A stretch of 62,126 bases of DNA from Thermoplasmata archaeon (GCA_030040865.1 JASHSX010000087.1:1-62126); one strand, 5' to 3'; shown: positions 7,704 through 38,041, numbered from the stretch's first letter. Notes: generated by a model not told the origin, from the sequence alone. Translations and numbers: made by a program.

Positions 7704-7768
7704 AGTGCTTACTTACCAAATTCGTAAAATCCTGAGGAGGGACCGCGTCCCCCGAGGGGAGAATCTCC

Positions 7769-9664: not shown

Positions 9665-9682
9665 GTCGCTGCTCGCGCCGCC

Positions 9683-22243: not shown

Positions 22244-22250
22244 ATATAAT
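22244..22250 (+). promoter_or_regulatory. putative TATA box, leaderless-type spacing to ATG 22273
   Basis: ATATAAT is centred about 26 nt upstream of the ATG and no purine-rich RBS lies between. This geometry is typical of archaeal leaderless mRNAs. Confidence 0.4.
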
Positions 22251-22272
22251 CTGTAGAGTTACTCAAAATCCC

Positions 22273-23877
22273 ATGATCGCTGATGAGGCGGTCAGAGCTC
22301 CACCACGTCGGAGACGATGGATTCCCTTCGTTGCGATTGCGGTGACGATCCTTGTGGTCGTTGCCTCCGCGGTGTACGTGCTTCGATCCCCGTCGCCCTC
22401 CACGAACCCGTCCGAAGGTCCGGGCATACAGATTTCCGTCGACCCGGCGTCGCTACCCAGTCTTTCGTCGACAGTCGCGGCGGACGAGCTGGAGAATGTG
22501 ACGATCCAGATATTTTCCGTGATGCCGTCCTCGGAGGGATACGCCGGGGTCAACCTGACCAGGGCCAACCTCTCATCGAACCCCTACCTCGATGAGTTGT
22601 TCCTAGGTACGCCGAGTCAGACTGGTGTTGCCGCCGGGAACCTCTCCGCCGAGTTCTATTCCATCGATCGCGCGTGGCTCGCGACCATGAGCCCGATGAC
22701 TCAGACCGTCAGCCTCCAGCTTTACGCCACTCTCTCGGTCACCGAAAGCGGAGTCTCTGACCAGTATACCTACTTCAACAATGTCCCCTACAACCCGAGA
22801 ACCCCCCCCGCGGACTTCTCCTCCTCGGTCTACTTCCCACCCCAGCCGACGTACTCCGGGCCCGCCGCCGCGGTCGCCAGAACCGGCATTTCTCCTTCCG
22901 AGAGGCCTCCCCCCTCCTGCGACCCTGGCGACTACTGGGAGCCGACCAACCTTACGTACATTTCCGATGGGTATGTGCCTCTCGCGATCGCCAACGCGGC
23001 GGGATCTCCGGCGGGAGCTCAACTCAGCTACGGCATCTCGTACGCCGACACTGCCCTGGAACTGAGCTTCACGAGCGCAACCTCCGAGGAGACCTCCACC
23101 GCGTACTCCGGCCTCCAGATGAGCGAAGACCCGTCGTGGTCAGGAACCGACACGAGCTTCCAGGGCGGGGAATATGCGGCAGGGGCGAATTCTGGTGGGG
23201 ACCCGACCTTCATCGGACTTTCGGGCGCGGAGCTCACGATCTGGGGATATCATGAGGCGGTGGAATACCTGTCGGGAGACACGTGCACTCAGGCTTGGGT
23301 CAACGCCTACTCCACTAGCGTTCAGCTCGATGGATTCGAGAGCGGCTCCAACTTCAACTTCACGGAAACCAGTCTTCCGGCGTACTTCGCCAGCTTGCTC
23401 GGCGACATGTCGGACTGGACAGCGCTCGACACCGCGACCCTTGACTACGGCGGGTCGGGCATCCAGTTCTACACGGTTCTCGAGACGGCGGCCGGTTATG
23501 ACAATGCCCAAGACGCCGAGGCTCAGGCCGAGACGGCGTTCACGACGCTCGACTTTGCCCTAGGGGCCGCCCTACTCGTATGTGACGTCTTGAACGTGAT
23601 CCCTGGTTTCGATGAGGTCGACTCCGCCCCTGAGGCCCTCGTGGTCCTCGGCGACGTCGCGGGTGTCGCGGCGGACTTGATGAACCTATTCAGTACCATC
23701 AGCTTCTCCACTAGCTCGCATACGTCGATTGAGCAATTCGGCGTCGATGTCAATCCGGCCGGTGCCCACGACAACTTGGAAGCGACGTTCTATGAGGCAT
23801 CGGTTGGGGAACAACTCTCGATCGGAAGCAGCACGTACGACCCGAACATGCCACTGCTTTACGTCGACGCGACCTAG
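22273..23877 (+). CDS. hypothetical N-terminally anchored exported protein (orphan)
   Basis: 534 aa. RRRRW plus a TM helix (IPFVAIAVTILVVVASAVYVL). S/T/A/G-rich ectodomain with sequons (NVT, NLT, NLS, NFT). C-terminal amphipathic/hydrophobic stretches (FALGAALLVCDVLNVIPGF; ALVVLGDVAGVAADLMNLF). Many A/T-ending codons, unlike the neighbours. Confidence 0.6.
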   Translation: MIADEAVRAPPRRRRWIPFVAIAVTILVVVASAVYVLRSPSPSTNPSEGPGIQISVDPASLPSLSSTVAADELENVTIQIFSVMPSSEGYAGVNLTRANLSSNPYLDELFLGTPSQTGVAAGNLSAEFYSIDRAWLATMSPMTQTVSLQLYATLSVTESGVSDQYTYFNNVPYNPRTPPADFSSSVYFPPQPTYSGPAAAVARTGISPSERPPPSCDPGDYWEPTNLTYISDGYVPLAIANAAGSPAGAQLSYGISYADTALELSFTSATSEETSTAYSGLQMSEDPSWSGTDTSFQGGEYAAGANSGGDPTFIGLSGAELTIWGYHEAVEYLSGDTCTQAWVNAYSTSVQLDGFESGSNFNFTETSLPAYFASLLGDMSDWTALDTATLDYGGSGIQFYTVLETAAGYDNAQDAEAQAETAFTTLDFALGAALLVCDVLNVIPGFDEVDSAPEALVVLGDVAGVAADLMNLFSTISFSTSSHTSIEQFGVDVNPAGAHDNLEATFYEASVGEQLSIGSSTYDPNMPLLYVDAT

Positions 23878-24071: not shown

Positions 24072-25319
24072 GTGTCGGACGAGCGCCTTGTGGAGGACTA
24101 CCACCCGGCGACCGCCGCCCAGCGTCATCTCCCCGCGTCGATCGTGCTCTGGGACGAAACCCTGCGCGACGGGGAGCAGATGCCCGGCGTCCACTTCTCC
24201 CCCGAGGAGAAGCTCCGGATCGCCGAGAGGCTCTCGGACGCCGGTGTCCCGCTCCTGAACGCGGGTATCCCCGTCGTCTCCGAGGAAGAGGCGCGGGCCG
24301 TGAAGCTCGTCGCCGACGCAGGACTCCGGGCGAAGGTCCTGGCCGCCGGCCGGACGGTGGCGGGGGACGTGGACGCCGTAGTCCGGAGCGGGGCCACCCA
24401 CATCGCGATCTTCGTGGCCGCCAGCAACGTCCACCTCCGCTACAAGCTCAAGATGACCCAGGACGAGGTCCTGCAGGCCTCGGTCACGACGGTCCGCCAG
24501 GCGAAGGACGCCGGGCTGCACGTCGCCTACGTCACCGAGGACACCGTCCGGGCTCCGTTCGACTTCGTCGAGCGGCTGTACCGCGCCGTTCAGGAGGCGG
24601 GGGCGGACCGACTCGTGGTCGCGGACACGGTCGGGATCATGACGCCCCTCACCTTCCGCTGGTACCTCGAGGAGTTCGTCCGACGGGTCCGCCCGAAAGA
24701 CCTCTCGGTCCACTGTCACAACGATTTCGGCCTGGCCACCGCGAACACCCTCACGGCGGTCGAGTGCGGGGCCACCGCGCCCCACGTATGCGTGAACGGG
24801 CTCGGCGAGCGCGCCGGCAACGCGTCGCTCGAGGAGGTGGTGATGGGGCTCGAGTCGCTCTACGGCGTGAAGACGGGGATCCGCACCGAGTCGCTCTACG
24901 AGCTCTCCCAACTGGTCGAGGAGCTCTCGGGCGTCCCCATCGCCGCCAACAAGGCGCTGGTCGGCTACAACGCTTTCTCGCACGAGGCGGGTATCCACAC
25001 GCACGGCATTCTCGCGAACACGCTCACCTACGAACCGCTCCAGCCCGAGGTCGTCGGGCGCCGACGGCAGATGATCCTCGGCAAGCACACGGGAAAGGCC
25101 GCCCTCGTGGAGAAGCTCAAGGAGCGCGGGATCACGGCCCCCGACCCGCTTCTCCTCGAACTGCTCCGCCAGGTGAAGACCGAGACCGAATCCCGCTCGA
25201 AGGCGGACCTCCAGCGGTTCGTCGAGCAGTACCGCACGCTTTTCGGGCGGCCGGGCCTGTCGGATACGGAGTTCTGGGCGATCGTCGAGGCGGTCGGGAT
25301 CCGGACGGGGAAGGCATGA
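24072..25319 (+). CDS. 2-isopropylmalate synthase / homocitrate synthase family enzyme (short form without LeuA C-terminal regulatory domain)
   Basis: 415 aa, GTG start. LWDETLRDGEQ, HCHNDFGLATANTL, NGLGERAGNASLEE, SHEAGIH. The length and missing LeuA_dimer domain fit HCS/AksA/CimA-like enzymes as well as LeuA. Confidence 0.88.
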   Translation: MSDERLVEDYHPATAAQRHLPASIVLWDETLRDGEQMPGVHFSPEEKLRIAERLSDAGVPLLNAGIPVVSEEEARAVKLVADAGLRAKVLAAGRTVAGDVDAVVRSGATHIAIFVAASNVHLRYKLKMTQDEVLQASVTTVRQAKDAGLHVAYVTEDTVRAPFDFVERLYRAVQEAGADRLVVADTVGIMTPLTFRWYLEEFVRRVRPKDLSVHCHNDFGLATANTLTAVECGATAPHVCVNGLGERAGNASLEEVVMGLESLYGVKTGIRTESLYELSQLVEELSGVPIAANKALVGYNAFSHEAGIHTHGILANTLTYEPLQPEVVGRRRQMILGKHTGKAALVEKLKERGITAPDPLLLELLRQVKTETESRSKADLQRFVEQYRTLFGRPGLSDTEFWAIVEAVGIRTGKA

Positions 25320-26599
25320 CGCAGCGGAACGGCCACGGGATGACGCTCGCCGAGAAGGTGCTGGCGCGGGTCTCCGGCGAGGAGCACGTCGTGCCCGGGC
25401 AGATCGTCGAAGGCGCCGTCGACCTCGCGATGATGCACGAGCAAGGGGCCCAGACCGTCGGCCCGTTCCACCAGATGGGCGCCGAGAAGGTCTGGGACCC
25501 CGATCGCGTCGTGATCGCGATCGACCACTGGGTGCCGGCCTCCACGGAGGGCGCCGCGGTCCTGCACCGGATCCTGAGGAAGTTCGCCCAGGAGACTTCC
25601 CTGCCGCACTTCTACGACGTCGGGCAGCACGGGATCTGCCACCAGATCCTCGCCGAGAACGGGTGGGTCGTCCCGGGGGACCTCGCCGTCGGTACCGACT
25701 CGCACACGAACATGCTCGGCGCGATGGGGGCGCTCGCCACGGGGATCGGGCCGACCGAGATGGCCGCGGTCCTGGCATTGGGTCGGCTGTGGCTCAAGGT
25801 CCCGTCGACGATCCAGATCCGGGTCCGCGGCACGTTCGGCGACGGCGTCACGGCGAAGGACCTCGTCCTTCGCGTCCTGGGCGAGGTGAAGACGACCGGC
25901 GCGACCTACAAGTCCGTGGAGTTCACCGGTCCGACGATCGCGGGGCTCTCGATGCCCGAGCGGTTCACGATCTGCAACATGACGACCGAGATGGGAGCGA
26001 AGACGGGGATGATCGCGCCGGACGAGGCGACGTTCGACTACCTCCGTCCGATCGCCAAGCACGCGATGCATCCGCTCGCCGCCGATGCCGACGCGGCGTA
26101 CGAAAAGACGATCGACGTCGATGTGACGGGGATGCCGCCGATGGTGGCGTGCCCGTACTCCCCGGACAACGTCCGTCCGCTCCCCGACGTCGCGCGGGAG
26201 CACGTCAAGGTCGACCAGGTGTTCCTGGGTTCCTGCACGAACGCCCGGATCGAGGACCTCCGCGAGGGGGCCGCGCTCATGAAGGGTTCGAAGGTCGCGA
26301 AAGGGGTGCGGTTCATCGTCTCCCCCGCGTCGACGAAGATCTACGACCAGTGCCTGCGCGAGGGGATCATCGAGACGTTCACCGACGCCGGCGCCGTTTT
26401 CACTAACTCGAGCTGCTCGGCGTGCTTCGGCGGCAACATGGGGATCCTCGCGCCCGACGAGGTCTGCGCGTCGTCGTCGAACCGCAACTTCCCCGGACGG
26501 ATGGGGGCCAAGGAGGCCCGGATCTACCTGATGTCCCCCGCCGCGGTCGTCGCGACGGCGATCCGGGGCGAGATCACCGATCCGCGCACCATGCGCTAG
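25316..26599 (+). CDS. leuC: 3-isopropylmalate / homoaconitate dehydratase large subunit (aconitase family)
   Basis: 427 aa from ATG 25316 (ATGA overlap). MTLAEKVLAR, DHWVPA, GICHQ, VGTDSHT, GSCTNARIEDL, CSACFG. Confidence 0.92.
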   Translation: MTQRNGHGMTLAEKVLARVSGEEHVVPGQIVEGAVDLAMMHEQGAQTVGPFHQMGAEKVWDPDRVVIAIDHWVPASTEGAAVLHRILRKFAQETSLPHFYDVGQHGICHQILAENGWVVPGDLAVGTDSHTNMLGAMGALATGIGPTEMAAVLALGRLWLKVPSTIQIRVRGTFGDGVTAKDLVLRVLGEVKTTGATYKSVEFTGPTIAGLSMPERFTICNMTTEMGAKTGMIAPDEATFDYLRPIAKHAMHPLAADADAAYEKTIDVDVTGMPPMVACPYSPDNVRPLPDVAREHVKVDQVFLGSCTNARIEDLREGAALMKGSKVAKGVRFIVSPASTKIYDQCLREGIIETFTDAGAVFTNSSCSACFGGNMGILAPDEVCASSSNRNFPGRMGAKEARIYLMSPAAVVATAIRGEITDPRTMR

Positions 26600-26613
26600 G
26601 CGAACGAGGTCCC

Positions 26614-27153
26614 GTGCAGGAGATCATCGAGGGGAGGGTCTGGACGCTCGGTCGCGACGTCGACACGGACCAGATCATCTCCGGCAAGTACCTCACGATC
26701 ATCGACCCGAACGAGCTCAAGAAGCACGTCTTCGAGATCGCCCTGCCCGAATTCGCGAGCGAAGCCCGGGCGGGCGACATCCTCGTCGCCGACGAGAACT
26801 TTGGCTCCGGCTCGAGCCGCGAGCACGCCCCGCAGGCGATGCGCGCGATCGGAGTGGGCGCCGTCGTGGCCGACTCGTTCGCGCGAATCTTCTACCGGAA
26901 CGCGATCAACCTCGGCATCCCGACGATCGAAGCGCGCGGGGTCCGGGCGATCTTCGAGAAGGGCGACACCGCCCGGATCGAGATGCGCGGCGGCCGTGTG
27001 ACGAACGTTCGGACCGGCGCGTCGATCGCTTTCCCGCCGATCCCGGCCCATCTCCTCGGTCTCCTCGAGGCGGGGGGGCTCGTCGAGAAGGTCCGTCAGG
27101 AACTCGCGTCGCGGAAGGCGGCCGCGTCACCCCCGCCGCCTCCGGTGCCATGA
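26614..27153 (+). CDS. leuD: 3-isopropylmalate / homoaconitate dehydratase small subunit
   Basis: 179 aa from GTG 26614, preceded by GAGG. VDTDQIISGKYL, NFGSGSSREHAPQA, FARIFYRNAINLG. Confidence 0.88.
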   Translation: MQEIIEGRVWTLGRDVDTDQIISGKYLTIIDPNELKKHVFEIALPEFASEARAGDILVADENFGSGSSREHAPQAMRAIGVGAVVADSFARIFYRNAINLGIPTIEARGVRAIFEKGDTARIEMRGGRVTNVRTGASIAFPPIPAHLLGLLEAGGLVEKVRQELASRKAAASPPPPPVP

Positions 27154-28283
27154 GGGCGGCCGGCTACACGATCGCCGCGTTCCCGGGCGACGGGACGGGA
27201 CCCGAGGTCGTCCGAGAGGGGCAGAAGGTGCTGGACGCCCTGGCGGAAGGGGGCCCGGCGCCCTGGACGGTCACGACCTATCCCGGCGGAGGGCAGTACT
27301 ACCTCGCGAAGGGCCGGGAGTGGGATCCGGAGAGCGAGGCGGCCGCGCACGCAGCGGACGCGATCCTCCTCGGTGCCGTCGGGTGGCCGGGCGCGACGCT
27401 TCCGAACGGCGACATCGCCGGTCGTGCCCTCGTCCTGGGACTCCGCGAGGGTCTCGACCTCTACTCGAACGTTCGACCGTGCCGGCTGTACCCGGGCGTC
27501 AAGCACCGTATCAGCGGCGAGTACCGGTCGGTCTGGTCGCCGGACCGGGTCGACATGGTCATCGTGCGGGAGAACACCGAGGACCTGTACACTCCGGCCC
27601 GCGGACGGCTGAGCCGGGGCGGGGAGACCGAGGTCGCCGTGGACACCCGACTGATCACGCGGAAGGGTTCCGAGCGCGTGGTCCGACGGGCGTTCGAGAT
27701 CGCGACCGCACGGAACCGCGGGGCTCCCGACGACGGAGTGAAGCGGGTGACGTGCGTCGACAAGTCGAACGTCCTCGAGGGGTGCCGATTCTTCCGGGAG
27801 ACATTCGACCGGGTCGCCGCCGAGTTCCCCCGGATCGAGAGGGACTACGCGTACGTCGACGCCTTCACGCAGTGGCTGATCCGGAACCCGGAGCGGTACA
27901 ACGTGGTCGTCACGACCAACATGATGGGGGACATCGTGACCGACCTCGCCGCCGTCCTTCAGGGCGGCATGGGGTTCGCGTCGGGGGGCAACATCGGGGA
28001 CGCGCACGGCATGTTCGAGCCCGTCCACGGGAGCGCCCCCAAGTACGCCGGCAAGAACCAGGTGAATCCGTACGCGACGTTCTTCGCGGTCGAGCAGATG
28101 CTCCGCTGGCTCGCGGACCGGCATCACGACGACGGACTGCGCCGACAGGCGGATCGCCTCGAGCGCGCCCTCGCCCGCACTCTCGCCGACGGGGGTTCCG
28201 GCACGTACGACCAGGGAGGGTCGGCGACGACCCGAGAGGCCGGGGACCGCGTGGCGGCGGCGGTCCGGTCCGAGGCGCGATGA
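27150..28283 (+). CDS. leuB: 3-isopropylmalate / homoisocitrate dehydrogenase family
   Basis: 377 aa (ATGA overlap). PGDGTGPEV, LYSNVRPC, VRENTEDLY, DKSNVL, NMMGDIVTDLAA, GSAPKYAGKN. Confidence 0.9.
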   Translation: MRAAGYTIAAFPGDGTGPEVVREGQKVLDALAEGGPAPWTVTTYPGGGQYYLAKGREWDPESEAAAHAADAILLGAVGWPGATLPNGDIAGRALVLGLREGLDLYSNVRPCRLYPGVKHRISGEYRSVWSPDRVDMVIVRENTEDLYTPARGRLSRGGETEVAVDTRLITRKGSERVVRRAFEIATARNRGAPDDGVKRVTCVDKSNVLEGCRFFRETFDRVAAEFPRIERDYAYVDAFTQWLIRNPERYNVVVTTNMMGDIVTDLAAVLQGGMGFASGGNIGDAHGMFEPVHGSAPKYAGKNQVNPYATFFAVEQMLRWLADRHHDDGLRRQADRLERALARTLADGGSGTYDQGGSATTREAGDRVAAAVRSEAR

Positions 28284-29464
28284 TCGGCCGGCGCGTCGCG
28301 CTCGTGGGAGGGGCCTCCACGCCGTTCGGCGTCCGGCCGACGACGTGGACCGAGCTGGCCCAGGAGGTGGGAGCTGCCCTGTTCCGGGCGATGCCCGAGC
28401 TCCGGGCCGAGGACGTCGATTCGCTCTTCGTCGGCGCGGCCGAGCCGGAACGGTTCGCCTTCCAGTCGCACGTCGCCCCGTTGGTCGCGGAACAGATGGG
28501 ACTGCAGCCGCGCCGGATCCTCCAGCGGACCGAGCTCGCCTGCGCCTCGGGCCAGTCCGCCATCCGTTCCGCGTACGCCGCGATCGCGGCCGGACTCTCG
28601 GACGTCGCCGTCGCGGTCGGCGTGGAGAAGATGAACCTTCCCGATATGGCCGAGGCGAACAGCGCAATGGGTTGCGTCCTCGACCGGGCGTGGGACGGAC
28701 CGCACGGGGCGACGGCTCCGCCGTTCTTCGCGATGGTCGCCCAGCGTCACATGCTCGAGTACGGGACCACGGAGGAGCAACTCGCGGCGGTCTCGGAGAA
28801 GAACCATCGATTCGCCAACTCCAACCCCAACGCCCAGTTCTACGCGAAGACGTTCGCCCGCGACAAGCTCCTGCGGCTGCCGGTCGTGGCGCCCCCGCTT
28901 CGTCTGGGGGACTGCTCTTCGATGACGGACGGGGCCGCAGCCGTGGTGCTGGTCGCCGAGGATCTCGCGCGGAAGTATACCGCGACGCCCGGGTGGGTGC
29001 GCGGGACCGGTCAGTACTCGGACTTCCACAATCTCGCGAACGCCGGGTCGCTCACCGACTGGGTCGGGATGAAGCACGCCGTACGCGAGGCGCTCCGCAG
29101 CGCGAAGATCGAGACGGCCGACCTCGACCTTGCCGAGCTCCACGACTGCTTCACGATCTCGGAGATCATCGAGTATGAGGCGCTCGGGCTGTGCGGTCCC
29201 GGCGAGGGCGGTCGGTTCGCGGCGGACGGTCGCGGGGAGCTGGGCGGTGATCTCGCCGTGAACACCCGGGGGGGACTGCTCGGATGCGGTCACCCGCTCG
29301 GGGCGACCGGGATCTCCCAGGCGCTCGAGGTCTACCAGCAGTTCGCCGGAACCGTCCCTCCCGTCCGTCAGGTGAGCTCGCCCGAGTGGGCGCTCGTCCA
29401 CAACCTGTCCGGAAGCGCGAACGTGCACTCGGTGATGGTCTATCAACGGGGGCAAGGCTCCTGA
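28280..29464 (+). CDS. thiolase-domain protein (archaeal acetoacetyl-CoA thiolase / SCP-x type)
   Basis: 394 aa from ATG 28280 (ATGA overlap with the leuB stop). ACASGQSAIRSA (Cys nucleophile), HDCFTISE, GGLLGCGHPLGATG. Confidence 0.9.
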   Translation: MIGRRVALVGGASTPFGVRPTTWTELAQEVGAALFRAMPELRAEDVDSLFVGAAEPERFAFQSHVAPLVAEQMGLQPRRILQRTELACASGQSAIRSAYAAIAAGLSDVAVAVGVEKMNLPDMAEANSAMGCVLDRAWDGPHGATAPPFFAMVAQRHMLEYGTTEEQLAAVSEKNHRFANSNPNAQFYAKTFARDKLLRLPVVAPPLRLGDCSSMTDGAAAVVLVAEDLARKYTATPGWVRGTGQYSDFHNLANAGSLTDWVGMKHAVREALRSAKIETADLDLAELHDCFTISEIIEYEALGLCGPGEGGRFAADGRGELGGDLAVNTRGGLLGCGHPLGATGISQALEVYQQFAGTVPPVRQVSSPEWALVHNLSGSANVHSVMVYQRGQGS

Positions 29465-29496
29465 GCGCGCCGGCGAAACCCCGCCGACCTACCGCG

Positions 29497-29982
29497 GTGA
29501 TCCCGGCCGCCGAAACGGGGCCCGCCCCGGTCTCGTCCCCACCGAAGAAGGAGCGGGGAACGCCGTTCCTGCTCGACTTCGTTCCGCTCGAGGGAGAGAA
29601 GGAGACCCGACTGAAGCCGTTCTTCGATCGCCTGCGGGAGGGTCGCCTTTCCACCACGAAATGCCCTCGGGACGGTCGGATCGACTGGCCGCCGCGGGTC
29701 ACCTGTCCCCGATGCCACACCGAGTCGCTCGAGTGGATCGACCTCCCGGACCAGGGTCGCTTGTATGCGTTCAGCGCGGTGCTCGGGGGCGCCCCGCTGG
29801 GGATGGAGTCCGAGGTCCCGTTCGCCGTGGGGCTCGTCGACCTCGACGGGGCACCGCTCCGCCTGTACGGTCGGATCGAGGGTCGGCCGTGGAACGAGCT
29901 CGCCGTCGGGGAGCCGGTCCGCGTGGAAACGTACGACGTCGGCGACGGGCGCTTCTTCTACCGGTTCCGTACGGTGCGATAG
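29497..29982 (+). CDS. DUF35 OB-fold/Zn-ribbon protein (thiolase/HMG-CoA synthase scaffold type)
   Basis: FFDRLREGRLSTTKCPRDGRIDWPPRVTCPRCH, then the OB-fold (GRLYAFSAV...VGLVDLDG...GEPVRVE). GTG 29497 is the only canonical start after the thiolase stop, so the start is moderately uncertain. Confidence 0.8.
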   Translation: MIPAAETGPAPVSSPPKKERGTPFLLDFVPLEGEKETRLKPFFDRLREGRLSTTKCPRDGRIDWPPRVTCPRCHTESLEWIDLPDQGRLYAFSAVLGGAPLGMESEVPFAVGLVDLDGAPLRLYGRIEGRPWNELAVGEPVRVETYDVGDGRFFYRFRTVR

Positions 29983-30066
29983 GCGAGGAGCGACGCACGC
30001 GGAAACTCGGTCGTCCCGTAGTTCCGGAGTCCCGAAGACCGACCGCGGCGTCTCTCGGTAACAGCC

Positions 30067-30075
30067 TATTTATAG
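30067..30075 (+). promoter_or_regulatory. putative TATA box upstream of aglB
   Basis: TATTTATAG, 47-55 nt upstream of ATG 30122, in an otherwise GC-rich spacer. Confidence 0.4.
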
Positions 30076-30121
30076 AGCCCGTCGGTCTCGCGCGCCGCCA
30101 ATAGCAGGGTATACGCCGTCC

Positions 30122-33100
30122 ATGGAGTCGTCGCGAACGGGTTGGTGGCACCGCCACGGTTGGACCGTGGCGATCCTGCTCGCGGCGTTCGGGATCGCGT
30201 TCGCGATCCGGACGGTCTGGACGTACCCCATCGTCGCGCAGTACGGACCGCTCTACACGTACGCGGGCGGCTCGGACTCCTACTACCACTCGCGCGTGAT
30301 GTCGTACATCATCCTCAACCATACGAATCTCGTGAAGGACCCGCTCCTTCGGTTTCCGGTCGGCGCGATCAACCCGCGCGAGCCGCTGTTCGACTGGATG
30401 AACGCGCTGCTCGGCCTCGTCTTCGCTCCGTTCTTCGGCGGCAACGCCGTCGTGGCGGGCGCGTGGTTCCTCGACCTCCAGGCCCCGCTGTGGGCGGCGC
30501 TCAGCGTGTTTCCGATCTACTGGATCGGCAAGGAGGTCAGCAACCGACGGATGGGCCTCATCGCGGCGCTGATCTACCCGTTCCTCTCCGCGAGCATCGA
30601 CTCGTCGATCTTCGGCTATGCGAACTATCTCTCGTTCTACACGTTCATCATCTTAGTCGCCCTGTATTCGTACCTCCGCACGGTCCGGGCCGTCGGGAGC
30701 CGGAAGTGGATCGCGAGCTACCGGCACCCGCGCCAGTACTGGCCCGGCCTGAGGGCGTTCCTTAGGACCGAGCGGACGGCGGTCAAGTGGGCGGTCTTCA
30801 CGGGGGTCTGTCTGGGCGCGACCGCGCTCGCGTGGCAGGGATACACGTACGTCGTCGTCGTGATCGTCCTCGCCCTCGTCATCTCCGTCGTCGCCGAGCG
30901 GATCCGCAAGGTCGATTCGTTCGGGATGTACGTCTGCGCCTGGATCGTGGGGGCCGTCGGCTTTCCGATGGAGCTGCCGTACTACCTCGTCCAGTACCAC
31001 TCGGACATCTACGGGTTCGAGTCGTTCTTCCTGCTCCAGTTCTTGATTTACTTCGGCGCGCTCCTCCTCCTGCTCCCGTTCGTCATGCTGCGGGACGTTC
31101 CGTGGGTCTTCTCGATCCCGCTCATGGTCGGGGTGATGGGGGCCGGGATCGCCGGCCTCGCGATCGTGAACCCGAGCCTGTTCACGACGATCGTCACGGG
31201 CCAGGGCTACTTCGTGAAGACCCTGATCTACTCGACCGTCGCCGAGGCCCAGGCGCCGACCGTCGACGAGCTCGTGATCGGCTACGGGGTCGTCACGTTC
31301 TTCCTCGCCTTCGCCGGCGTCGGGATCTTCCTGTACCTGCTCGTAAAAGGGCGGTTCAAGCGGGTCCACGTCGTCTTCCTCGTCTTCGCGATCCTCTCGA
31401 TCTACCTGCCCGTCTCCGCGACCAAGTTCTTCCTGTTGGGGTCCCCCGCGTTCGCGCTCCTGCCGGCCGAGGCGATCCGGCGGGCGCTCGACGTGGGCTC
31501 GTATCCCGAGCTGCGCCGTACCGTCGCCTCCCTCTCGGACCGACGCAGCCAGTTCGCCGCGTTCCGCAAGGCGTTCAAGGCGCGTCACGTCCTCGTCATG
31601 CTGCTCGTTCTCGTGATCCTGCTCCCGAACGTCTGGGTCTCGATCGACGCGGGGATCCCGGGGAACACGAAGTCCGGCTACGCCGCCCAGGTCGGCGCCA
31701 CGCTCCCGCCGTGGCTCCAGCTCAACACCACGAGCCCGTCGTCGTACTACTTCGGCGCTGCGGGCTCGTCGCTCGACACGCCCAACCAGTACGATAGCGC
31801 CGGATACAATTGGCTCGCGACGTTAGACACGAACATCCCCGAGCCCGATCGTCCCGCCTTCGTGAGCTGGTGGGACTACGGGTTCCAGGCGATCGACCAG
31901 GGTCAGCATCCGAGCGTCGCGGACAACTTCCAGAACGGGATCGACCCGGCCGGTCAGTTCCTCCTCGCGCAGAACGAGTCGATCGCCATCGGCGTGCTCG
32001 CGACGACGCTGCTCACCGGGATCCCCGCGCAGAGCGCCACCACGTACCTCCCGGCGAACCTGAACCAGATCCTCGCGGCCGACGGCCTCAATACCTCCCG
32101 GCTCAACGGCTACCTCCTCAATCAGGGCAGCGATTACACTACGGTGGTCAACAACCCGACGCTCTACCTCCCCGTCGACGCCAGCACCCTGACCGCCGAG
32201 AACGCGATGTACATGGTCGTCTCGTACTACATCGCCGGCAAGCTGCCGCTCTCGGGCGTCGCGAAGGTCTACAACGACGTCCAGGCGTACACGGGCAACT
32301 CGATCCGCTACGCGATGAGCGACACCCGACTGTTCCCCTTCAGCGGTACCGACACCGGCATCTACTACGCGCCGGCCGACCTCACGGGTCGGGTCATCGA
32401 CGGCGCGGGGAACCCGTCGACGTACTTCAACGTCACCGTGCTCGGCAGCGACGGCAACACCTACCCCGAGGGCCAGGTGCCCGCGGACGTGAGCGCGGTC
32501 AACTACAACATCAATTATTTCGCACCGTTCTACGACTCGATGATCTACCACATCTACATCGGCTACAACGGGACCGATGTCGGGGCGGGTTCGGGCATCC
32601 CGTGCATCAGCTTGAACTGCACGAGCTACCCGCTCGAACCCGGCTGGATGCTCCAGCACTTCCAAGTCATCTACGAGACCGCCTACCTCTGCCCCTCCCA
32701 GACCGACACGGCGGCCTGCTCGGCCACCAACCGCCCGACCGCGATCTCCCAGGCGGCGGCGACCGGTGCCTACGCCGACCTCTCGGCGGACAACTACTTC
32801 AACGGCGGCGAGAGCTTCCTTCAGTACTACCCCGGCCAGACCCTCCTCGGCGAGGTGGTACTCCCCGACGGGACGCCGGTCGCCGGGGCACGCGTGACCG
32901 TCGACGACGGCTGGGGGATCCCGCACATGACGGCCGTCACGGCCAAGGACGGCTCGTTCTCCCTGGTGCTACCCCCGGGAAACGACACCGTCAACGTGAC
33001 GATCGGGACCGTGAACGGGCTCTCGCAGCAGGGGGCCACGCTCCTCAAGTCCGTGAAGATCGACGTGCCGAACGCGATCGGTCTCTCCTACGACGCGCCG

Positions 33101-36100
33101 AATCTCGCCGAGACGTTCACGATCCCGGCGGCGACGGTCTCGGGGAACGTCTACTGGAAGCTCGGCGACAACACGTCGTACGAGAGCGGGGAGCCGCTCA
33201 TCTCGGGGGCCCAGGTCGTGCTGTGGGGCGCGGGTCTGGGCACCCGCACCGCCACGACCGATCCCAGCGGGACGTTCGCGCTCGCCAACGTCCCGTCGGG
33301 CGTCTACAACGCGAGCGTGCTGTACGCGGGGCACAACTTCACGATGACCGCGATCACGGTGACGCCTTCCTCGAGCACCACGCCCCAATCGTTCGGCCTG
33401 CCGGCGTCGAAGGTCGTCGGTCGTGTGATGCAGGGCGAGCAGGGGGTCGCGAACGTGACGGTGACGGCCTCCGCTCCCGGCTTCACGATCTCCAACCTGA
33501 GCGCGTCGAACGGAAACATCACCCTGCCGACGCTGGGACCCGGTAACTACTCGATCGTCGCCAGCCTGCCCGGGACCGGCCTGCGGTCGGCCGGTGCGTT
33601 CGTCCAGATCACGTCCCCCGGCACGACGGTCCACCTCAACTTCACCCTCGCCGCGACCGCGGCCGCCTCGGTCACGCTCGTGGCGAACGGAGCTCCGGTC
33701 TCGGGCATCCCCGTGCGGTTCGTCGCCCTCCCCGACCTCACGAGCAGCAATATGTCCCCGATCGCGGCGTACTCGAGCGTCGCCACGAACGGCACGGTCG
33801 TCACGAGCAGTTCTACCGGCCTCGCGAGCGTCGTCCTGCCGGTCGGGACGTACGAGGCGTACGCGCTCGGCTACGTGGCGGGCACGCTCGACGCGGGCAT
33901 CGGCACCGTGACCACCACGGCTTCGGTCGTCCCCCCGCCCGTGCCGATCGTCCTCACGCCGGCGTACCGTTTATCCGGATCGGTGAACCTGGTCGGAGCA
34001 GTCGGCAGCGAGAGCCAGAGCGCGGTGGTCGCGTACACGAGCGCCGGGGACCCCGTGATCTCCTGGGCCGGGACGAACAGCACGTACGTCCTCTACCTTC
34101 CGTCGGGCACGTACTCCCTCTACGCGGTCCAGGGTACGACCGCCGCGACCGGGCCGTTCTACGCGGCGCTCAGCTCCGTCACGCTCACCGGGCCCGCCTC
34201 GGTCTCCCTCTCGCCGTCGGTCGCGGTCTACGCGCGCTTCTCGACGGGCTCCCACCTCGCCAACGGGTCTCTGTTCCCAGCCCCGACCTCCCGGGCCGTC
34301 ATCTCGTACGGCGCGACCGGCCCCTCGATTCCGCTGGTCGGTTCGGCGAGCGGTGTCCTGGCCGGTTACCTCCCGTCCGCCCTCCCGCTCAGTGTGCCGT
34401 CGTACTGCCTCGCCGTCTCGGCCCCGGGGTTCGCCTCGTCGAACGAGTGCGGGATCTCCCCGAGCGGGCTCGCCGCACTCTCGACGGTGCCGCTCACCCT
34501 GACCCCCGTCTCCGTGACGGTCCGGCTCGTCGGACTCCCCCGCGGCATGTCGGCCGCCGTCAACCTGACGGCGCAGAGCGCGACCGCGGTCACCCGCACG
34601 CTCACCGGCGGCCCGAACGTCGTCTTCTCGACGACCCCGGGAAGCTACGCCGTCAGCGGGTGGACGAGCACCGACAACGGTACCGTCCTCTACGAGCCCT
34701 CCAACCCGGTCTCCGCGACGTTCCCGCTCGGCACGGTCAGCGCGGCCGTCACGCTCCGGGTCGTCGCCACGATCAACGCGACCGGGACCCTCGCGTTGCC
34801 GAAGGACGGAGCGCTCAACGCCACGCTCGTGTCGCTCTCCTCGCCGCAGCTCAACAAGACCGTCAACGGCACGGTGTTCGAGGACGGATTCTTCGCCGCG
34901 GTCGGTAGCTACTCGGTCTACTCGAACGTCACCGTCAACTCGGTGCTCTACACCAACGTGACGACGGCGAGCGTCTCCGCGAACGGCACGATCTCCCCGA
35001 AGATCACGATCGACACCGTCGGCCTACGGGTGAGCGGGACGCTCGAGCGACCGAGCGGCGCCCTCCTGAACGCCAACGCCACGCTCACGATCACCACGCC
35101 CGGCGGGGCCGTCCTTCGGACCTACGCGGCCAACGGAACGTTCACGGTCTACCTGCCGCCGAACGCGACGTACCGGGTGAGCACGTCGACCGCGACCAAC
35201 GTCGTGGGACCGAACGGGACGTACGTGGCGACCTGGACCACCCCGACGAACAGCGCCTGCACGGTCTCTCCGAATTCGCCGAGTTGCCCGGTCCCGCTCG
35301 AACCGACGACGGTGCGCGTCTGGCTGAACGGCACGCTCGTCGCCCCCGGCGTCCCGGGGCTCGTCCCCGGAGCGGTCCGCCTCATCGGTCCGTACCCCTA
35401 CACGAACCTCACGATCGTGAACACCACCTCGGGGGCGTTCTCGGCGCAGGTCCTCCCGGGGAGCTACTCGGTCTACGCGTCGGGGGGCGGGGTCTCCGAT
35501 CTCCTGGCGAACTTCACCGAACTCCTGGCGCTGCCGACCACGAACGGGTCCTCGACGATCTCGCTTCTACCGGCCTGGGTGGCGACGCTCGGGGTCGCTC
35601 CGGCGAACGTGTCGCTCGCGCCGCCGGGACCGGCGAACGTGACGGTCCGCAACGCGTTCGGCCTCACTACGGTCCTTCCGGGGGTTCGCGGCTCCGCGTC
35701 CCAATCGATCGCCCTTCCCGTCGGGACGTACGTCGTCAGCGGCGCCTCGAGCGGGTACCCGTACGGCCTCAAGACCGCGGCGAACGGCGCCCTGAACCTC
35801 ACGATCGTTTCGGGGAACGTCGGCGCCACCGTGCCGCTCGCCTACGCGTTCGTGCCGTCGGTCACCGGCACGCTCACCGGTCGGGGCTCCGTCCTCGTGA
35901 ACGCCGGTACGCAGGTCAGCTTCTCGTTCACCGTGAAGAACACGGGGAACGTACCGGTGACGATCCATCCGACCGGCGGCCCGTCGTACTGGCCGTTCAA
36001 CTTCACGCTTCAGAACGTGACGGTCCCGGTCGGTGTCCAGCTGGGCGGCGTGGCGATGATCACGGTGCCGGCGGGCACGATCGTCGACCACCCGGGAGTC

Positions 36101-36715
36101 ACCATCTCCTTCGCGCTCCCGAACGGCACGATCGTCGGCTCCGTCGCGCCGGACCCGAAGGTGAATATCATCGGATTCTTCGGCGTGAAGGTGAGCTCCA
36201 CCTCGTCGGTCCCCGCCGAGATCGGGCCGAACCAGGCGCGGATCCCGTTCAACATCAGCAACACCGGCAACCAGGGCGAGACGGTCGCGATCACCGCCGT
36301 CGATGAGCCGCGGATCAACGCGCTCGGGTGGACGGTCACCTTCGTTCAAGAAGGGCTCGAGACCCCGATGACGACGACCTTCCTGTCGGCGGGTCAGAAC
36401 CAGACGTGGTACGAACAGCTCAACGCGACCGGCGCGATCTTCGTTCCGGCGGGGACCGTCACGGTGGCCGGGACCGTCCTCAACTCTACGACCTCCCCGC
36501 AGTCGTTCGTCACGATCCGCGTTCCCTCCGCGTCGGTCGGCCCCGCCTCGAACGGGACGGGTTCGTTCACGGTGACGGGACCGCAGGTCGGCCCGGCCCC
36601 GTCGAACCTCCCCGATTGGCTCGTGCCGGCGCTCGTCTTCGTGCCGGCGCTCGCCCTCGTGGTCCTGATCCTCGTCTACCGGTGGAACCGCTCGCGGCGG
36701 TGGAGGCGCCGGTGA
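30122..36715 (+). CDS. aglB: giant AglB dolichyl-phosphooligosaccharide-protein glycotransferase (STT3 homologue) fused to a ~1300-aa tandem beta-sandwich surface domain with C-terminal TM anchor
   Basis: 2197 aa, a single uninterrupted ORF. N-terminal multi-TM region with GGSDSYYHSR (first-loop acidic motif), LIYSTVAEAQ (TIxE-type motif) and VSWWDYGFQ (WWDYG catalytic motif, nt 31868-31882). From about aa 900 there are repeated G.V..PDG.P..GA.V...G...T.DGSF.L.LPPG-type (CarboxypepD_reg-like) and CARDB-like (FSFTVKNTGNVPVTI) modules. The protein ends with LVPALVFVPALALVVLILVYRWNRSRRWRRR. Confidence 0.9.
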   Translation: MESSRTGWWHRHGWTVAILLAAFGIAFAIRTVWTYPIVAQYGPLYTYAGGSDSYYHSRVMSYIILNHTNLVKDPLLRFPVGAINPREPLFDWMNALLGLVFAPFFGGNAVVAGAWFLDLQAPLWAALSVFPIYWIGKEVSNRRMGLIAALIYPFLSASIDSSIFGYANYLSFYTFIILVALYSYLRTVRAVGSRKWIASYRHPRQYWPGLRAFLRTERTAVKWAVFTGVCLGATALAWQGYTYVVVVIVLALVISVVAERIRKVDSFGMYVCAWIVGAVGFPMELPYYLVQYHSDIYGFESFFLLQFLIYFGALLLLLPFVMLRDVPWVFSIPLMVGVMGAGIAGLAIVNPSLFTTIVTGQGYFVKTLIYSTVAEAQAPTVDELVIGYGVVTFFLAFAGVGIFLYLLVKGRFKRVHVVFLVFAILSIYLPVSATKFFLLGSPAFALLPAEAIRRALDVGSYPELRRTVASLSDRRSQFAAFRKAFKARHVLVMLLVLVILLPNVWVSIDAGIPGNTKSGYAAQVGATLPPWLQLNTTSPSSYYFGAAGSSLDTPNQYDSAGYNWLATLDTNIPEPDRPAFVSWWDYGFQAIDQGQHPSVADNFQNGIDPAGQFLLAQNESIAIGVLATTLLTGIPAQSATTYLPANLNQILAADGLNTSRLNGYLLNQGSDYTTVVNNPTLYLPVDASTLTAENAMYMVVSYYIAGKLPLSGVAKVYNDVQAYTGNSIRYAMSDTRLFPFSGTDTGIYYAPADLTGRVIDGAGNPSTYFNVTVLGSDGNTYPEGQVPADVSAVNYNINYFAPFYDSMIYHIYIGYNGTDVGAGSGIPCISLNCTSYPLEPGWMLQHFQVIYETAYLCPSQTDTAACSATNRPTAISQAAATGAYADLSADNYFNGGESFLQYYPGQTLLGEVVLPDGTPVAGARVTVDDGWGIPHMTAVTAKDGSFSLVLPPGNDTVNVTIGTVNGLSQQGATLLKSVKIDVPNAIGLSYDAPNLAETFTIPAATVSGNVYWKLGDNTSYESGEPLISGAQVVLWGAGLGTRTATTDPSGTFALANVPSGVYNASVLYAGHNFTMTAITVTPSSSTTPQSFGLPASKVVGRVMQGEQGVANVTVTASAPGFTISNLSASNGNITLPTLGPGNYSIVASLPGTGLRSAGAFVQITSPGTTVHLNFTLAATAAASVTLVANGAPVSGIPVRFVALPDLTSSNMSPIAAYSSVATNGTVVTSSSTGLASVVLPVGTYEAYALGYVAGTLDAGIGTVTTTASVVPPPVPIVLTPAYRLSGSVNLVGAVGSESQSAVVAYTSAGDPVISWAGTNSTYVLYLPSGTYSLYAVQGTTAATGPFYAALSSVTLTGPASVSLSPSVAVYARFSTGSHLANGSLFPAPTSRAVISYGATGPSIPLVGSASGVLAGYLPSALPLSVPSYCLAVSAPGFASSNECGISPSGLAALSTVPLTLTPVSVTVRLVGLPRGMSAAVNLTAQSATAVTRTLTGGPNVVFSTTPGSYAVSGWTSTDNGTVLYEPSNPVSATFPLGTVSAAVTLRVVATINATGTLALPKDGALNATLVSLSSPQLNKTVNGTVFEDGFFAAVGSYSVYSNVTVNSVLYTNVTTASVSANGTISPKITIDTVGLRVSGTLERPSGALLNANATLTITTPGGAVLRTYAANGTFTVYLPPNATYRVSTSTATNVVGPNGTYVATWTTPTNSACTVSPNSPSCPVPLEPTTVRVWLNGTLVAPGVPGLVPGAVRLIGPYPYTNLTIVNTTSGAFSAQVLPGSYSVYASGGGVSDLLANFTELLALPTTNGSSTISLLPAWVATLGVAPANVSLAPPGPANVTVRNAFGLTTVLPGVRGSASQSIALPVGTYVVSGASSGYPYGLKTAANGALNLTIVSGNVGATVPLAYAFVPSVTGTLTGRGSVLVNAGTQVSFSFTVKNTGNVPVTIHPTGGPSYWPFNFTLQNVTVPVGVQLGGVAMITVPAGTIVDHPGVTISFALPNGTIVGSVAPDPKVNIIGFFGVKVSSTSSVPAEIGPNQARIPFNISNTGNQGETVAITAVDEPRINALGWTVTFVQEGLETPMTTTFLSAGQNQTWYEQLNATGAIFVPAGTVTVAGTVLNSTTSPQSFVTIRVPSASVGPASNGTGSFTVTGPQVGPAPSNLPDWLVPALVFVPALALVVLILVYRWNRSRRWRRR
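32822..36540 (+). repeat. protein-level tandem array of roughly a dozen ~85-100-aa beta-sandwich modules inside aglB
   Basis: Recurrent degenerate pattern (e.g. GEVVLPDGTPVAGARVTV...DGSFSLVLPPGN; SGNVYW...SGAQVVLWG...DPSGTFALANVPSGVYNASV; VGRVMQGEQGVANVTVTA...NGNITLPTLGPGNYSIV; RVSGTLERPSG...ANGTFTVYLPPNATYRV). Module boundaries were estimated by eye only. Confidence 0.5.
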
Positions 36716-37548
36716 GCGCGGTCCGTCGACTTCCGGTCCTGCTCGCGATCGTCGTCCTCCTCGGGGCGGCGTTCGCGATGGGGCCGAGGGTGGCGGCCGC
36801 CGCGCCACCCGCCTCTCTCACGGCGGCCGCGTCGTCGTCCGTCACCGGGTCGGTGTACGGCCCGACGGTGCTCGGAGTGAACGGCCACGGCGCCTACACG
36901 ATCAACGCGACGGGCGGACCCGCGTACGCCCCGAACGGCACCGAGGTCGGCAACATCACGTTCTACGCTTCGCTGCAGGCGAGCAACACGACCGGGATGA
37001 ACATCACCCCGGCGGAGTTCGTGATCACGAACGGCACGTTCACCCCGGCTCGGCTGTCCACGAACGGCTTCGCCCAGGTCGTCACGATCCTGGTGATGAT
37101 CTCGTCGACCAACGCGACGGCCAACGACACGATCAACGTCACCTACGCGGTGAACGTCGTCACACCGTACTCGCTGACCGCCACGATCGTGAACCAGACG
37201 AACGCGACGGTCCTCGCGTTCGTCGTGTACGTGGCGCTCGACGGGACGATGGTCGGCAACGTGTCGGTCCCGTCGATCACGCCGAGCGCGAACTACGCCT
37301 TCTCCTTCCAGTACGTGACCCTGAGCCTCGGCACCGGATGGCATACGTTCACGGTCTCGCTCGCGAACGAGCACGGGCTGGTCGCCTTCTCGAACGGCGC
37401 CCTCAGCTACTCCGTGTCGTTCTACGTCCCGGGCCCCGCCCCCAACTACACGCTCTGGTACGTCGTCGGCGTCGTCGCGTTTTTCGGGGTACTGTTTATA
37501 TACGCCACCCGAGTGGCCGCTCGCCGACGCGGCGCCCTGCGCAAGTAG
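36712..37548 (+). CDS. secreted sequon-dense protein with signal peptide and C-terminal TM anchor (putative surface glycoprotein)
   Basis: 278 aa from GTG 36712 (GTGA overlap with the aglB stop). Signal-like VSAVRRLPVLLAIVVLLGAAFAMGPRVAAA. 13 N-X-S/T sequons by manual count. C-terminal LWYVVGVVAFFGVLFIYATRVAARRRGALRK. The upstream 128 aa of track ORF 36328 lies inside aglB. Confidence 0.7.
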   Translation: MSAVRRLPVLLAIVVLLGAAFAMGPRVAAAAPPASLTAAASSSVTGSVYGPTVLGVNGHGAYTINATGGPAYAPNGTEVGNITFYASLQASNTTGMNITPAEFVITNGTFTPARLSTNGFAQVVTILVMISSTNATANDTINVTYAVNVVTPYSLTATIVNQTNATVLAFVVYVALDGTMVGNVSVPSITPSANYAFSFQYVTLSLGTGWHTFTVSLANEHGLVAFSNGALSYSVSFYVPGPAPNYTLWYVVGVVAFFGVLFIYATRVAARRRGALRK

Positions 37549-37569: not shown

Positions 37570-37743
37570 ATGGAGTCCCGGGTCGACGTGCGGTGCCGTT
37601 CCTGCGGCCGGGCGCTCCCCGCGCCCGGCGGGACCCAGTTCCTCTGTCCGCAGTGCGGGACCGAGACGATCGGCCGGTGCACGCGGTGCCGGGACCAGAG
37701 CGTGACGTACCGCTGCTCGAAGTGCGGGTTCGTGGGACCGTAG
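37570..37743 (+). CDS. small double Zn-ribbon protein (COG2888/DUF1610, translation-associated)
   Basis: Not in the ORF track (57 aa). Own translation: MESRVDVRCRSCGRALPAPGGTQFLCPQCGTETIGRCTRCRDQSVTYRCSKCGFVGP. Four CxxC pairs, and the conserved archaeal position immediately upstream of EF-1beta. Confidence 0.75.
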   Translation: MESRVDVRCRSCGRALPAPGGTQFLCPQCGTETIGRCTRCRDQSVTYRCSKCGFVGP

Positions 37744-37759
37744 GAGCCGGGGTCGGCGC

Positions 37760-38026
37760 ATGGGTCAGGTGGCTGTCCTCTTCCGTCTGATGCCCCAGGG
37801 CGTCGAGACCGACATGCAGGCGCTCGGCGCCGGGGTGCGGTCGGTAGTGCCGAAGGGGGTCACGATCCGCGGCATGCAGGTGAAGGACATCGCCTTCGGG
37901 CTCAAGTCCCTGCTCGTGTCGGTCGTCATGGACGACACCGGCGGGGTCCTCGATTCGGTCGAGCAGGCGCTCGCGAAGGTGCCCCACGTCGAGTCGGTGG
38001 AAGTGATGGAGGAGGGGCTCCTCTAG
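37760..38026 (+). CDS. ef1b: translation elongation factor aEF-1 beta
   Basis: 88 aa; MGQVAVLFRLMP...IAFGLKSLLVSVVMDD..GG.LDSVE..L..V..VESVEV is typical of aEF-1beta. Confidence 0.9.
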   Translation: MGQVAVLFRLMPQGVETDMQALGAGVRSVVPKGVTIRGMQVKDIAFGLKSLLVSVVMDDTGGVLDSVEQALAKVPHVESVEVMEEGLL

Positions 38027-38041
38027 GCGCGCGGGGAGACC

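Follow-up and report, generated by a model that had tools for sequence, protein, structure and literature searches.

A giant AglB-family protein of the Thermoplasmatota with a β-sandwich arm, a predicted second membrane anchor and a linked partner gene

The DNA considered here is a stretch of 62,126 nucleotides (nt) from a Thermoplasmata archaeon (GCA_030040865.1, JASHSX010000087.1:1-62126); this whole stretch is called the window. Its plus strand carries, at 30122..36715, a single uninterrupted open reading frame (ORF) that begins with ATG, runs for 2197 codons plus stop and encodes a protein of a predicted 229 kDa. The protein is a relative of AglB, the oligosaccharyltransferase (OST) of archaea, extended by a long C-terminal arm, and its gene overlaps that of a small partner. 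Archaeal AglB is currently viewed as a single-subunit enzyme of roughly 600-1050 amino acids (aa). The GC content at third codon positions (GC3) is 0.93 across the full length of the ORF, which is typical of the genes in the window, where the overall GC is about 70%. The host belongs to the soil Thermoplasmata and is of the Lutacidiplasmatales type; for this order, about 69% GC and about 2.1 Mb have been reported, with which the window agrees (PMC9287336). The envelope and glycosylation are not discussed in that paper.

The search for homologues covered about 5.8 billion proteins. Among the matches listed are 120 homologue clusters with lengths of 1949-2211 aa and identities of 52-66%; query coverage is 99-100% in 118 of them. 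The named clusters in this listing are all metagenome-assembled genomes of a "Thermoplasmata archaeon". Most of these homologues bear the PGAP label "carboxypeptidase regulatory-like domain-containing protein"; JGI labels read dolichyl-phosphooligosaccharide-protein glycotransferase or Stt3. A scan of one genome per GTDB species, in which loci encoding a relative were counted, yielded at least 581 of them. The best 80 all belong to soil or peat Thermoplasmata, Candidatus Lutacidiplasma silvani among them. Where the ORF could be traced to its stop codon in related loci, it is unbroken for 2186-2218 codons in 66 of 72 cases; the few truncated ORFs (457, 954, 1950 and 2119 codons) look like individual assembly errors.

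The gene and the elements of its catalytic half are these:

30122..36715, plus strand: giant AglB-family gene (ORF reading, full-length homologues)
30122..31651, plus strand: N-terminal membrane domain, aa 1-510, predicted GT-C fold with about 13 transmembrane (TM) helices (AlphaFold2, Foldseek, TIGR04154)
30266..30289, plus strand: GGSDSYYH, aa 49-56, region of the first DXD-type motif with the catalytic Asp, D52 (alignments)
30371..30403, plus strand: NPREPLFDWMN, aa 84-94, family-invariant block in external loop (EL) 1 with the clade-specific E87 (alignments)
30596..30631, plus strand: IDSSIFGYANYL, aa 159-170, EL2 region in which N168-Y169-L170 replaces the second DXD motif (alignments; motif definition from PMC8342417)
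31235..31246, plus strand: TIXE motif in the form T-V-A-E, aa 372-375, in EL5 (E375 invariant)
31652..32821, plus strand: extracytoplasmic AglB globular region, aa 511-900, a WWDYG core with lineage-specific α and β units (Pfam, PDB matches)
31868..31882, plus strand: WWDYG motif, aa 583-587 (invariant)

That the N-terminal 900 aa or so are of the AglB/STT3 type, with a multi-TM core, had been claimed in the initial annotation of this DNA, and the searches agree. The best curated family match is TIGR04154, the NCBIfam model of archaeal STT3 that covers haloarchaeal AglB (archaeosortase A system-associated OST); it extends over aa 17-787 with an E value of 7.5e-62. Pfam adds a weak AglB_core-like match at aa 572-624, and precomputed matches to STT3 (PF02516) are present on many homologues. 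A search of PDB sequences retrieves 3vu0 and 3vgp, C-terminal domains of Archaeoglobus fulgidus AglB-S, around the WWDYG motif. The AlphaFold2 model of aa 1-1000 contains about 13 TM helices at a mean predicted local distance difference test (pLDDT) of 63, the membrane part being good and the external core poor, so no claims about single residues are based on it. With this model, Foldseek finds A. fulgidus AglB first (7e9s, 3wak, 5gmy and 3waj; E 2e-14 to 4e-11), then STT3 of yeast and man and PglB; AglB, STT3 and PglB are among the top 21 matches, the E values of which range from 2e-14 to 5e-4. A GT-C fold with about 13 TM helices, followed by an extracytoplasmic globular domain, is thus what the model predicts.

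The motifs were compared in alignments of 44 close homologues, of 25 distant ones and of 142 representatives, with the motif definitions of PMC8342417. In A. fulgidus AglB the first DXD motif is Gly-Asn-Asp47 (PMC8342417), the counterpart of which is G50-S51-D52 here. D52 is invariant in both curated alignments (the close and the distant one); among the representatives, G-[SN]-D occurs in 127 of 142 and the aligned Asp in 140. The curated alignments show no variation at E375, in WWDYG or in a HP..ADNFQ block, and all 142 representatives have T-[IV]-x-E. NPREP is found in only 7 of the 142 representatives, NPRPP in 63. Over aa 1-900, 286 positions are at least 98% conserved. Downstream of WWDYG, at the position of the DK (D-x-x-K-x-x-x-M/I) or MI motif, the aligned stretch is G-I-D608-P-A-G-Q612-F-L-L, without any Lys, opposite DDAAKFF of AglB-S2; this position is non-canonical throughout the superfamily. 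GSDSYYH, TVAE and WWDYG (nt 31868-31882) were read correctly at the outset. The accompanying statement that every hallmark of the family is present does not quite hold, as no canonical second DXD motif occurs in this clade.

The closest structural relative is AglB-L of A. fulgidus, an archaeal OST of known structure (7E9S, 3WAJ, 3WAK, 5GMY; best E 2e-14), which likewise consists of a 13-TM GT-C domain and an external globular domain and has the Asp of the first DXD motif, the Glu of TIXE and WWDYG in common with the window protein. Identity is about 14%; Asp161-His-His163 stands where the window protein has Asn-Tyr-Leu; and the A. fulgidus enzyme, about 868 aa long (its chains in the PDB comprise about 790-870 residues), ends after the globular domain and has no β-sandwich array, no C-terminal TM helix and no known partner. 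Haloarchaeal AglBs, which turn up as distant matches to the relatives of the window protein, measure about 1020-1070 aa and have AglB_L1 (PF18079); they, too, lack the CarboxypepD_reg array and the C-terminal TM helix.

Behind the globular region the chain of the window protein continues:

32822..36526, plus strand: array of about 13 β-sandwich domains, aa 901-2135, with 43 sequons (AlphaFold2, Pfam, shuffles)
35861..36526, plus strand: last two β-sandwich domains, aa 1914-2135, with NTGN motifs, CARDB/DUF11-like (weak matches)
36620..36685, plus strand: C-terminal (14th) TM helix, aa 2167-2188 (hydropathy 3.03, modelled helix, conserved sequence)
36686..36712, plus strand: Arg-rich, presumably cytoplasmic tail NRSRRWRRR, aa 2189-2197 (sequence; topology by deduction)

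An extension of about 1300 aa in β-sandwich modules, uninterrupted and ending in a hydrophobic helix and an RSRRWRRR tail, had been proposed from the start; the single ORF, the all-β model and the terminal helix and tail uphold this. The module types named with it fared unequally. Pfam recognises CarboxypepD_reg in three stretches (E 4e-16, the best at aa 907-962) and related β-sandwich families up to about aa 1090; a fragment scanned separately gave a weaker match of the CarboxypepD_reg type at about aa 1108-1176. For the CARDB/DUF11-type modules near the C-terminus there are weak matches alone (DUF7507 0.002, CARDB 0.12, TIGR01451 0.09, choice_anch_T 2e-5). The AlphaFold2 model of aa 990-2189 is all-β at a mean pLDDT of 82, with a terminal helix at aa 2167-2188; the count of about 13 domains between aa 905 and 2135 is taken from the strand pattern of the model, and their boundaries are approximate.

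The arm is rich in Thr, Val, Ala, Gly and Ser and low in charge (Asp plus Glu 3.1%, Lys plus Arg 2.9%). Its N-x-S/T sequons number 43, compared with 15.1 ± 3.2 in composition-matched shuffles (z 8.6); the same comparison reveals no sequon enrichment in the enzyme half. Across the 120 homologues the arm contains 27-50 sequons, many at conserved positions. Identity to these homologues is about 75% in the catalytic half and about 40% in the arm. Despite its faster evolution, the arm is almost free of insertions and deletions, which implies that the number of domains is fixed.

The protein ends with LVPALVFVPALALVVLILV, which is hydrophobic, followed by YRWNRSRRWRRR. In this helix and tail the sequence itself is conserved (LPDW.VP...FVPA), beyond mere hydrophobicity. 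Together with the roughly 13 N-terminal TM helices, the C-terminal anchor places both ends of the protein in the membrane, as had been thought. Because AglB has its N-terminus inside and its globular domain outside, the arm would be extracellular and the Arg-rich tail cytoplasmic, which also suits the positive-inside rule. An archaeosortase-type C-terminal signal was considered and ruled out, since no CTERM sorting-signal model matches the last 80 aa at E values up to 10.

Searches with the arm itself against known structures yield little. Foldseek against the PDB returns just generic multi-Ig chains (α2-macroglobulin, hydin, pilins, integrins) with TM-scores of about 0.1, and phmmer against PDB sequences finds nothing. 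The family profile of the arm has its best PDB match in NOMO2 of the BOS complex (9C7V_B; E 3.9e-17, about aa 1025-1250), and precomputed Pfam matches to NOMO1-like_2nd exist on many homologues. NOMO, too, is a string of CarboxypepD_reg/Ig-like domains that ends in a single C-terminal TM helix, an arrangement found in the window arm as well. Yet NOMO is a stand-alone eukaryotic protein of the endoplasmic reticulum with a signal peptide and no enzyme domain, whereas the array described here is fused to an archaeal enzyme. The likeness is that of a common repeat domain and does not demonstrate orthology.

The second component is encoded immediately downstream:

36712..37548, plus strand: partner gene, 278 aa, the GTG start of which overlaps the AglB stop codon (GTGA at nt 36712; ORF reading, homology)

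The partner protein has an N-terminal signal/TM segment, a CARDB domain (E 5e-6; 27.0 bits, which passes the cut-off of 22.7), a C-terminal TM helix and an RRRGALRK tail. It contains 13 sequons, with 3.4 ± 1.7 expected. In all 64 related loci with enough sequence, a homologue of the partner lies immediately 3' of the giant gene, and nearly all of them show the ATGA/GTGA overlap. The pair even survives when the remaining neighbourhood is unlike that of the window: in Thermoplasma volcanium GSS1 and in a 1.96-Mb Thermoplasmatales genome (CP060531.1), a downstream gene of 259 and 256 aa, respectively, overlaps the giant gene by 4 nt, and its product is homologous to the window partner (BLASTP 2e-7 and 2e-11). 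Across genomes the partner measures about 255-280 aa. A profile of 53 partners, moreover, matches, in a 2667-aa relative, the additional module at the C-terminus (hhalign probability 96.2%, E 2.4e-9, 214 columns) and the last 230 aa or so of forms with 2400-2775 aa (96.8%, E 2.9e-10), which indicates that in other lineages the partner is fused to the enzyme. There is, in short, good genomic evidence that AglB and partner would work as a functional unit.

How widespread is this arrangement? HMMER, run exhaustively over 1.84 billion cluster representatives with aa 1-640 as query, found 242 clusters of catalytic-domain relatives at E ≤ 1e-30. Most full-length representatives, at 30-42% identity, have 2000-2800 aa. 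A few reach about 3150-3185 aa and have an extra N-terminal membrane domain; in P0260, P0262, P0266 and P0269 this is a multi-TM domain that precedes an AglB domain starting at about residue 360. More than 1350 aa follow WWDYG in 91 of the best 150 relatives, and 82 of these 91 giants end in a hydrophobic segment and basic residues. In six of the 91 the last 45 aa include a PGF motif, which stands directly ahead of the C-terminal hydrophobic segment; the clade of the window has LPDW.VP...FVPA in its place. It resembles PGF-CTERM, as in S-layer glycoproteins, in the distant giants P0146, P0163, P0165, P0176 and P0199; in P0170 the PGF-like TM segment lies further inside and is followed by an appended partner-like module. 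A minority of 1100-1200 aa, the named ones labelled "Candidatus Thermoplasmatota archaeon" or "Euryarchaeota archaeon", terminates with three to four β-sandwich domains and has no anchor.

Giant forms also occur in cultured Thermoplasmatales, some of them sequenced long ago: Thermoplasma volcanium GSS1 (2076 aa; P0202, TVG1271204, named dolichyl-phosphooligosaccharide-protein glycotransferase in UniRef), Thermoplasma sp. (2081 aa), Oxyplasma meridianum (2113 aa), Caldiplasma sukawensis (2093 aa), Cuniculiplasma (2091-2111 aa) and Ferroplasma (2056 aa). The giant protein of the 1.96-Mb Thermoplasmatales genome bears the NCBI label AglB. The T. volcanium protein, from an acidophile of low GC, has the same sequence of AglB, collinear β-sandwich array, TM helix and basic tail as the window protein, with 62 sequons in the arm and its CARDB partner of about 259 aa; identity is about 31% in the catalytic domain, about 28% over the initial part of the arm, and its EL2 motif is D-G-R-x-H, not N-Y-L. 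To our knowledge, it is equally uncharacterised by experiment.

The giant AglB is thus the standard form in the Thermoplasmatota, and the window copy is typical of its class. Two earlier claims need correction in this light. An undescribed architecture special to this locus finds no support: the loci counted above show it to be lineage-wide, the relatives from the HMMER scan phylum-wide, and T. volcanium GSS1 and the 1.96-Mb Thermoplasmatales genome have it as well. The unusual size holds in comparison with A. fulgidus AglB, but about 2100 aa is the norm in this phylum. The survey of AglB lengths that had been recommended likewise has two sides: size and architecture are routine, mostly under automatic names, yet no published description was found. 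In the searchable literature, which did not extend to key papers on AglB phylogeny, neither a giant or fused AglB nor the arm or the partner is described, and provisionally the class may be taken as new to the literature.

What, then, does the protein do? We consider it rather probable that it is an active AglB, that its ectodomain is an accessory part which stays attached for good and is glycosylated by the protein itself, and that the partner is a coupled subunit. The first 510 aa or so would form the 13-helix GT-C membrane domain and act together with the external WWDYG core, which reaches to about aa 900. To judge from fold and motifs, this enzyme would transfer a glycan linked to dolichol phosphate to the Asn of N-x-S/T at the outer face of the membrane. 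The chain would run on as about 13 β-sandwich domains with about 43 sequons, re-enter the membrane with the 14th helix and leave its Arg-rich tail in the cytoplasm. The arm may be glycosylated by its own enzyme and serve as an accessory module in concert with the small type-I membrane glycoprotein, the translation of which would be coupled to that of AglB. It may also form part of the coat of glycoproteins on these cells, most of which have no wall, with no crystalline S-layer involved. Catalysis, topology, self-glycosylation, subunit association and coat function are all things we infer.

On this reading the OST would have two components and carry non-catalytic ectodomains within its own make-up, a logic similar to that of the β-sandwich type-I subunits of the eukaryotic OST. 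The STT3 fold of the latter matches the window enzyme, and it is established knowledge that the eukaryotic complex combines a catalytic GT-C subunit with single-pass proteins that have extracytoplasmic β-rich domains. Its accessory subunits are, however, separate, whereas the accessory part of the window protein is fused in cis. To liken arm and partner to ribophorins, OST48 and Swp1 is a comparison in concept only; no relationship of sequence or fold was found, nor was one searched for.

A bolder version we put forward tentatively and rate as unlikely: the OST of the Thermoplasmatota might be the foot that holds in the membrane a self-glycosylating surface module of two proteins, which would make up a major part of a wall-replacing coat. 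That this module would comprise the doubly anchored arm of about 13 domains with 30-60 N-glycans, plus the coupled and sometimes fused type-I partner, is to be taken with the same reserve. If true, coat assembly and N-glycosylation would be coupled in cis, and a non-catalytic subunit dedicated to the enzyme would be described for the first time in a prokaryotic OST.

Several alternatives deserve attention. One holds that the chain is a polyprotein, cleaved after export near aa ~860-905 to yield an anchored, heavily glycosylated surface glycoprotein of about 130 kDa; this we regard as unlikely, and the same applies to its corollary that the fusion with AglB serves only glycosylation in cis and a fixed stoichiometry. 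The junction, aa 851-900, is indeed the least conserved and most gapped stretch of the N-terminal half. The arm with its own anchor amounts to 130.6 kDa, and its composition and sequon density are like those of an archaeal surface glycoprotein; for T. acidophilum, a major membrane glycoprotein of about 152 kDa has been reported. But no conserved cleavage motif was identified at the junction. No part of the arm is better conserved (62-74% identity) than the first β-sandwich domain (aa 901-1000), which follows directly upon the AglB globular region, and the relatives of 1100-1200 aa keep three to four such domains as an integral C-terminus, without any anchor.

Some observations weigh against the active-enzyme reading. 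The TIGR04154 score (209.8) is below the curated cut-off of 450, the Pfam STT3 score (PF02516, 13.5 bits) is below that of 24.5, and aa 460-611 of the external catalytic core are modelled at a pLDDT of less than 50. The canonical second DXD motif is missing in the window clade, where its counterpart is N168-Y169-L170, and this is a reservation to be taken seriously. In A. fulgidus AglB this motif is Asp161-His-His163, and Asp161 and His163 are metal ligands (PMC8342417). D-H-D is found in most relatives, D-G-R-x-H in Thermoplasmatales.

One could argue that the AglB domain of this clade is a pseudo-enzyme, retained in a structural surface protein as its foot in the membrane or for the binding of sequons, while another enzyme performs N-glycosylation. 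The lost second DXD motif, where most relatives have D-H-D, and the scores under the Pfam and NCBIfam cut-offs speak for it. We nevertheless find it distinctly unlikely. Conservation of D52, E375, WWDYG and the 286 nearly invariant positions indicates strong constraint on the enzyme half. The substitute motif is itself conserved in the family: Y166, A167, Y169 and L170 are invariant and N168 is present in at least 90%. The motif of the Thermoplasmatales is non-canonical as well, and these are known N-glycosylators; Thermoplasma N-glycosylates its membrane proteins (PMC2952790; PMC11407970). Finally, no second, canonical AglB was seen among the relatives retrieved, and none of the contigs with a form of 1100-1200 aa agrees in length with a contig of a giant gene, which is a weak negative and does not settle the question of paralogues. 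From three points the enzyme is predicted to be probably active: outside the lost motif the site is invariant, conservation is higher in the catalytic half than in the arm, and the replacement motif is maintained. Acidic residues specific to the clade lie near the site, namely E87 and position 160 (Asp, Glu or Gln; D160 in the window); the active site of this clade looks rewired, but that E87 and D160 compensate for the loss is speculation.

A third idea goes back to the initial annotation, which had suggested that the protein may itself constitute part of an S-layer-like coat; in its strong version, the arm would be a lattice-forming S-layer protein, and the OST would be built into the wall. 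The C-terminal anchor, the many sequons and the terminal CARDB/DUF11 folds of the "S-layer domain" type fit, as does the PGF motif near the C-terminus of six distant relatives, which is also found in S-layer glycoproteins. We consider the idea very improbable. Giant forms are present in Thermoplasma and Cuniculiplasma. With the exception of Picrophilus, Thermoplasmatales are described as bounded by a single membrane (PMC3750248), and cultured Cuniculiplasma, the AglB gene of which has been noted, is devoid of an S-layer (PMC5155288); the general lack of a wall and these S-layer-deficient isolates weaken the case. No sorting-signal model matches the C-terminus of the window protein, the structural matches of the arm are generic multi-Ig chains alone, and both ends of the protein are membrane-bound. 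The milder part of the original suggestion, that glycosylation and assembly of a surface coat are coupled in one polypeptide, is possible and is helped by the sequon enrichment.

That a normal AglB and a separate gene for a surface protein were merged by a missed stop codon, a frameshift or a chimeric assembly, a danger pointed out early, finds no support in the few truncated ORFs, which read as errors of those assemblies, and is effectively refuted by the full-length homologue clusters, the unbroken ORFs of the traced loci, the uniformly high GC3 and the same fusion in complete genomes of cultured species.

The surroundings of the gene are quickly described. One further element may belong to it directly:

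30067..30077, plus strand: putative archaeal promoter with the TATA-box-like TATTTATAGAG, about 45-55 nt 5' of the start codon (read from sequence, role by deduction)

No N-glycosylation gene cluster was found near the giant gene in the window, which is otherwise filled with housekeeping genes (Hsp70, citrate synthase, HisRS, POR, homocitrate/isopropylmalate-type genes, topoisomerase VI and others). The block directly upstream (24072-30104) comprises genes for a homocitrate/isopropylmalate-synthase-like protein, large and small aconitase subunits, an isopropylmalate-dehydrogenase-like protein, a thiolase and a DUF35/ChsH2-type OB-fold protein. It is syntenic with positions 3984-9888 of a related locus (L001) from a relative at 55% protein identity, in which the downstream genes for YdjM, an aldo-keto reductase and a hydrolase are syntenic, too. 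T. volcanium keeps nothing of this neighbourhood but the pair of AglB and partner. Related loci contain genes for ribosomal protein aS21 (57 aa) and EF-1β (88 aa) between partner and YdjM (L002, 17428-17876); the comparable region of the window is 37600-38040, and the aS21 call is missing from one of two near-identical assemblies.

Two stretches of the window deviate in composition. About 1.8 kb of lower GC (0.60-0.64) at 22.2-24.0 kb separates the genes for POR alpha and the homocitrate-synthase-like protein and includes a 570-aa ORF (22162-23871, plus strand; GC3 0.75) with no Pfam match. In the syntenic L001 the two genes are only about 160 nt apart, and 22.2-24.0 kb looks like an insertion. 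The other stretch, about 5700-7700, with a GC of 0.50-0.62, lies just 5' of the Hsp70/DnaK gene (7769-9664) and has no ORF with the high GC3 typical of the genome; a 288-aa ORF at 5682-6545 (minus strand) has no Pfam match. Neither an Rfam family nor a tRNA was found in the window, this stretch included.

The window locus, then, is an ordinary member of its class, and the interest lies in the class, the two-component giant OST in which the wiring of the active site varies, less in the locus. A conserved, apparently under-described architectural variant of a known enzyme is well supported. Two to three times larger than the AglBs of the current view and present phylum-wide, this form combines a conserved sequon-laden array with an additional membrane anchor of its own and an obligate partner protein; it would count as an architectural class of OST in its own right. 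It bears on the limits within which the active site of an OST can be rewired, the second DXD motif varying from D-H-D over D-G-R-x-H to N-Y-L. Cultured carriers such as Thermoplasma volcanium, Ferroplasma and Cuniculiplasma make the class directly testable, and it may be relevant to the question of how a glycoprotein surface arises in wall-less Thermoplasmata.

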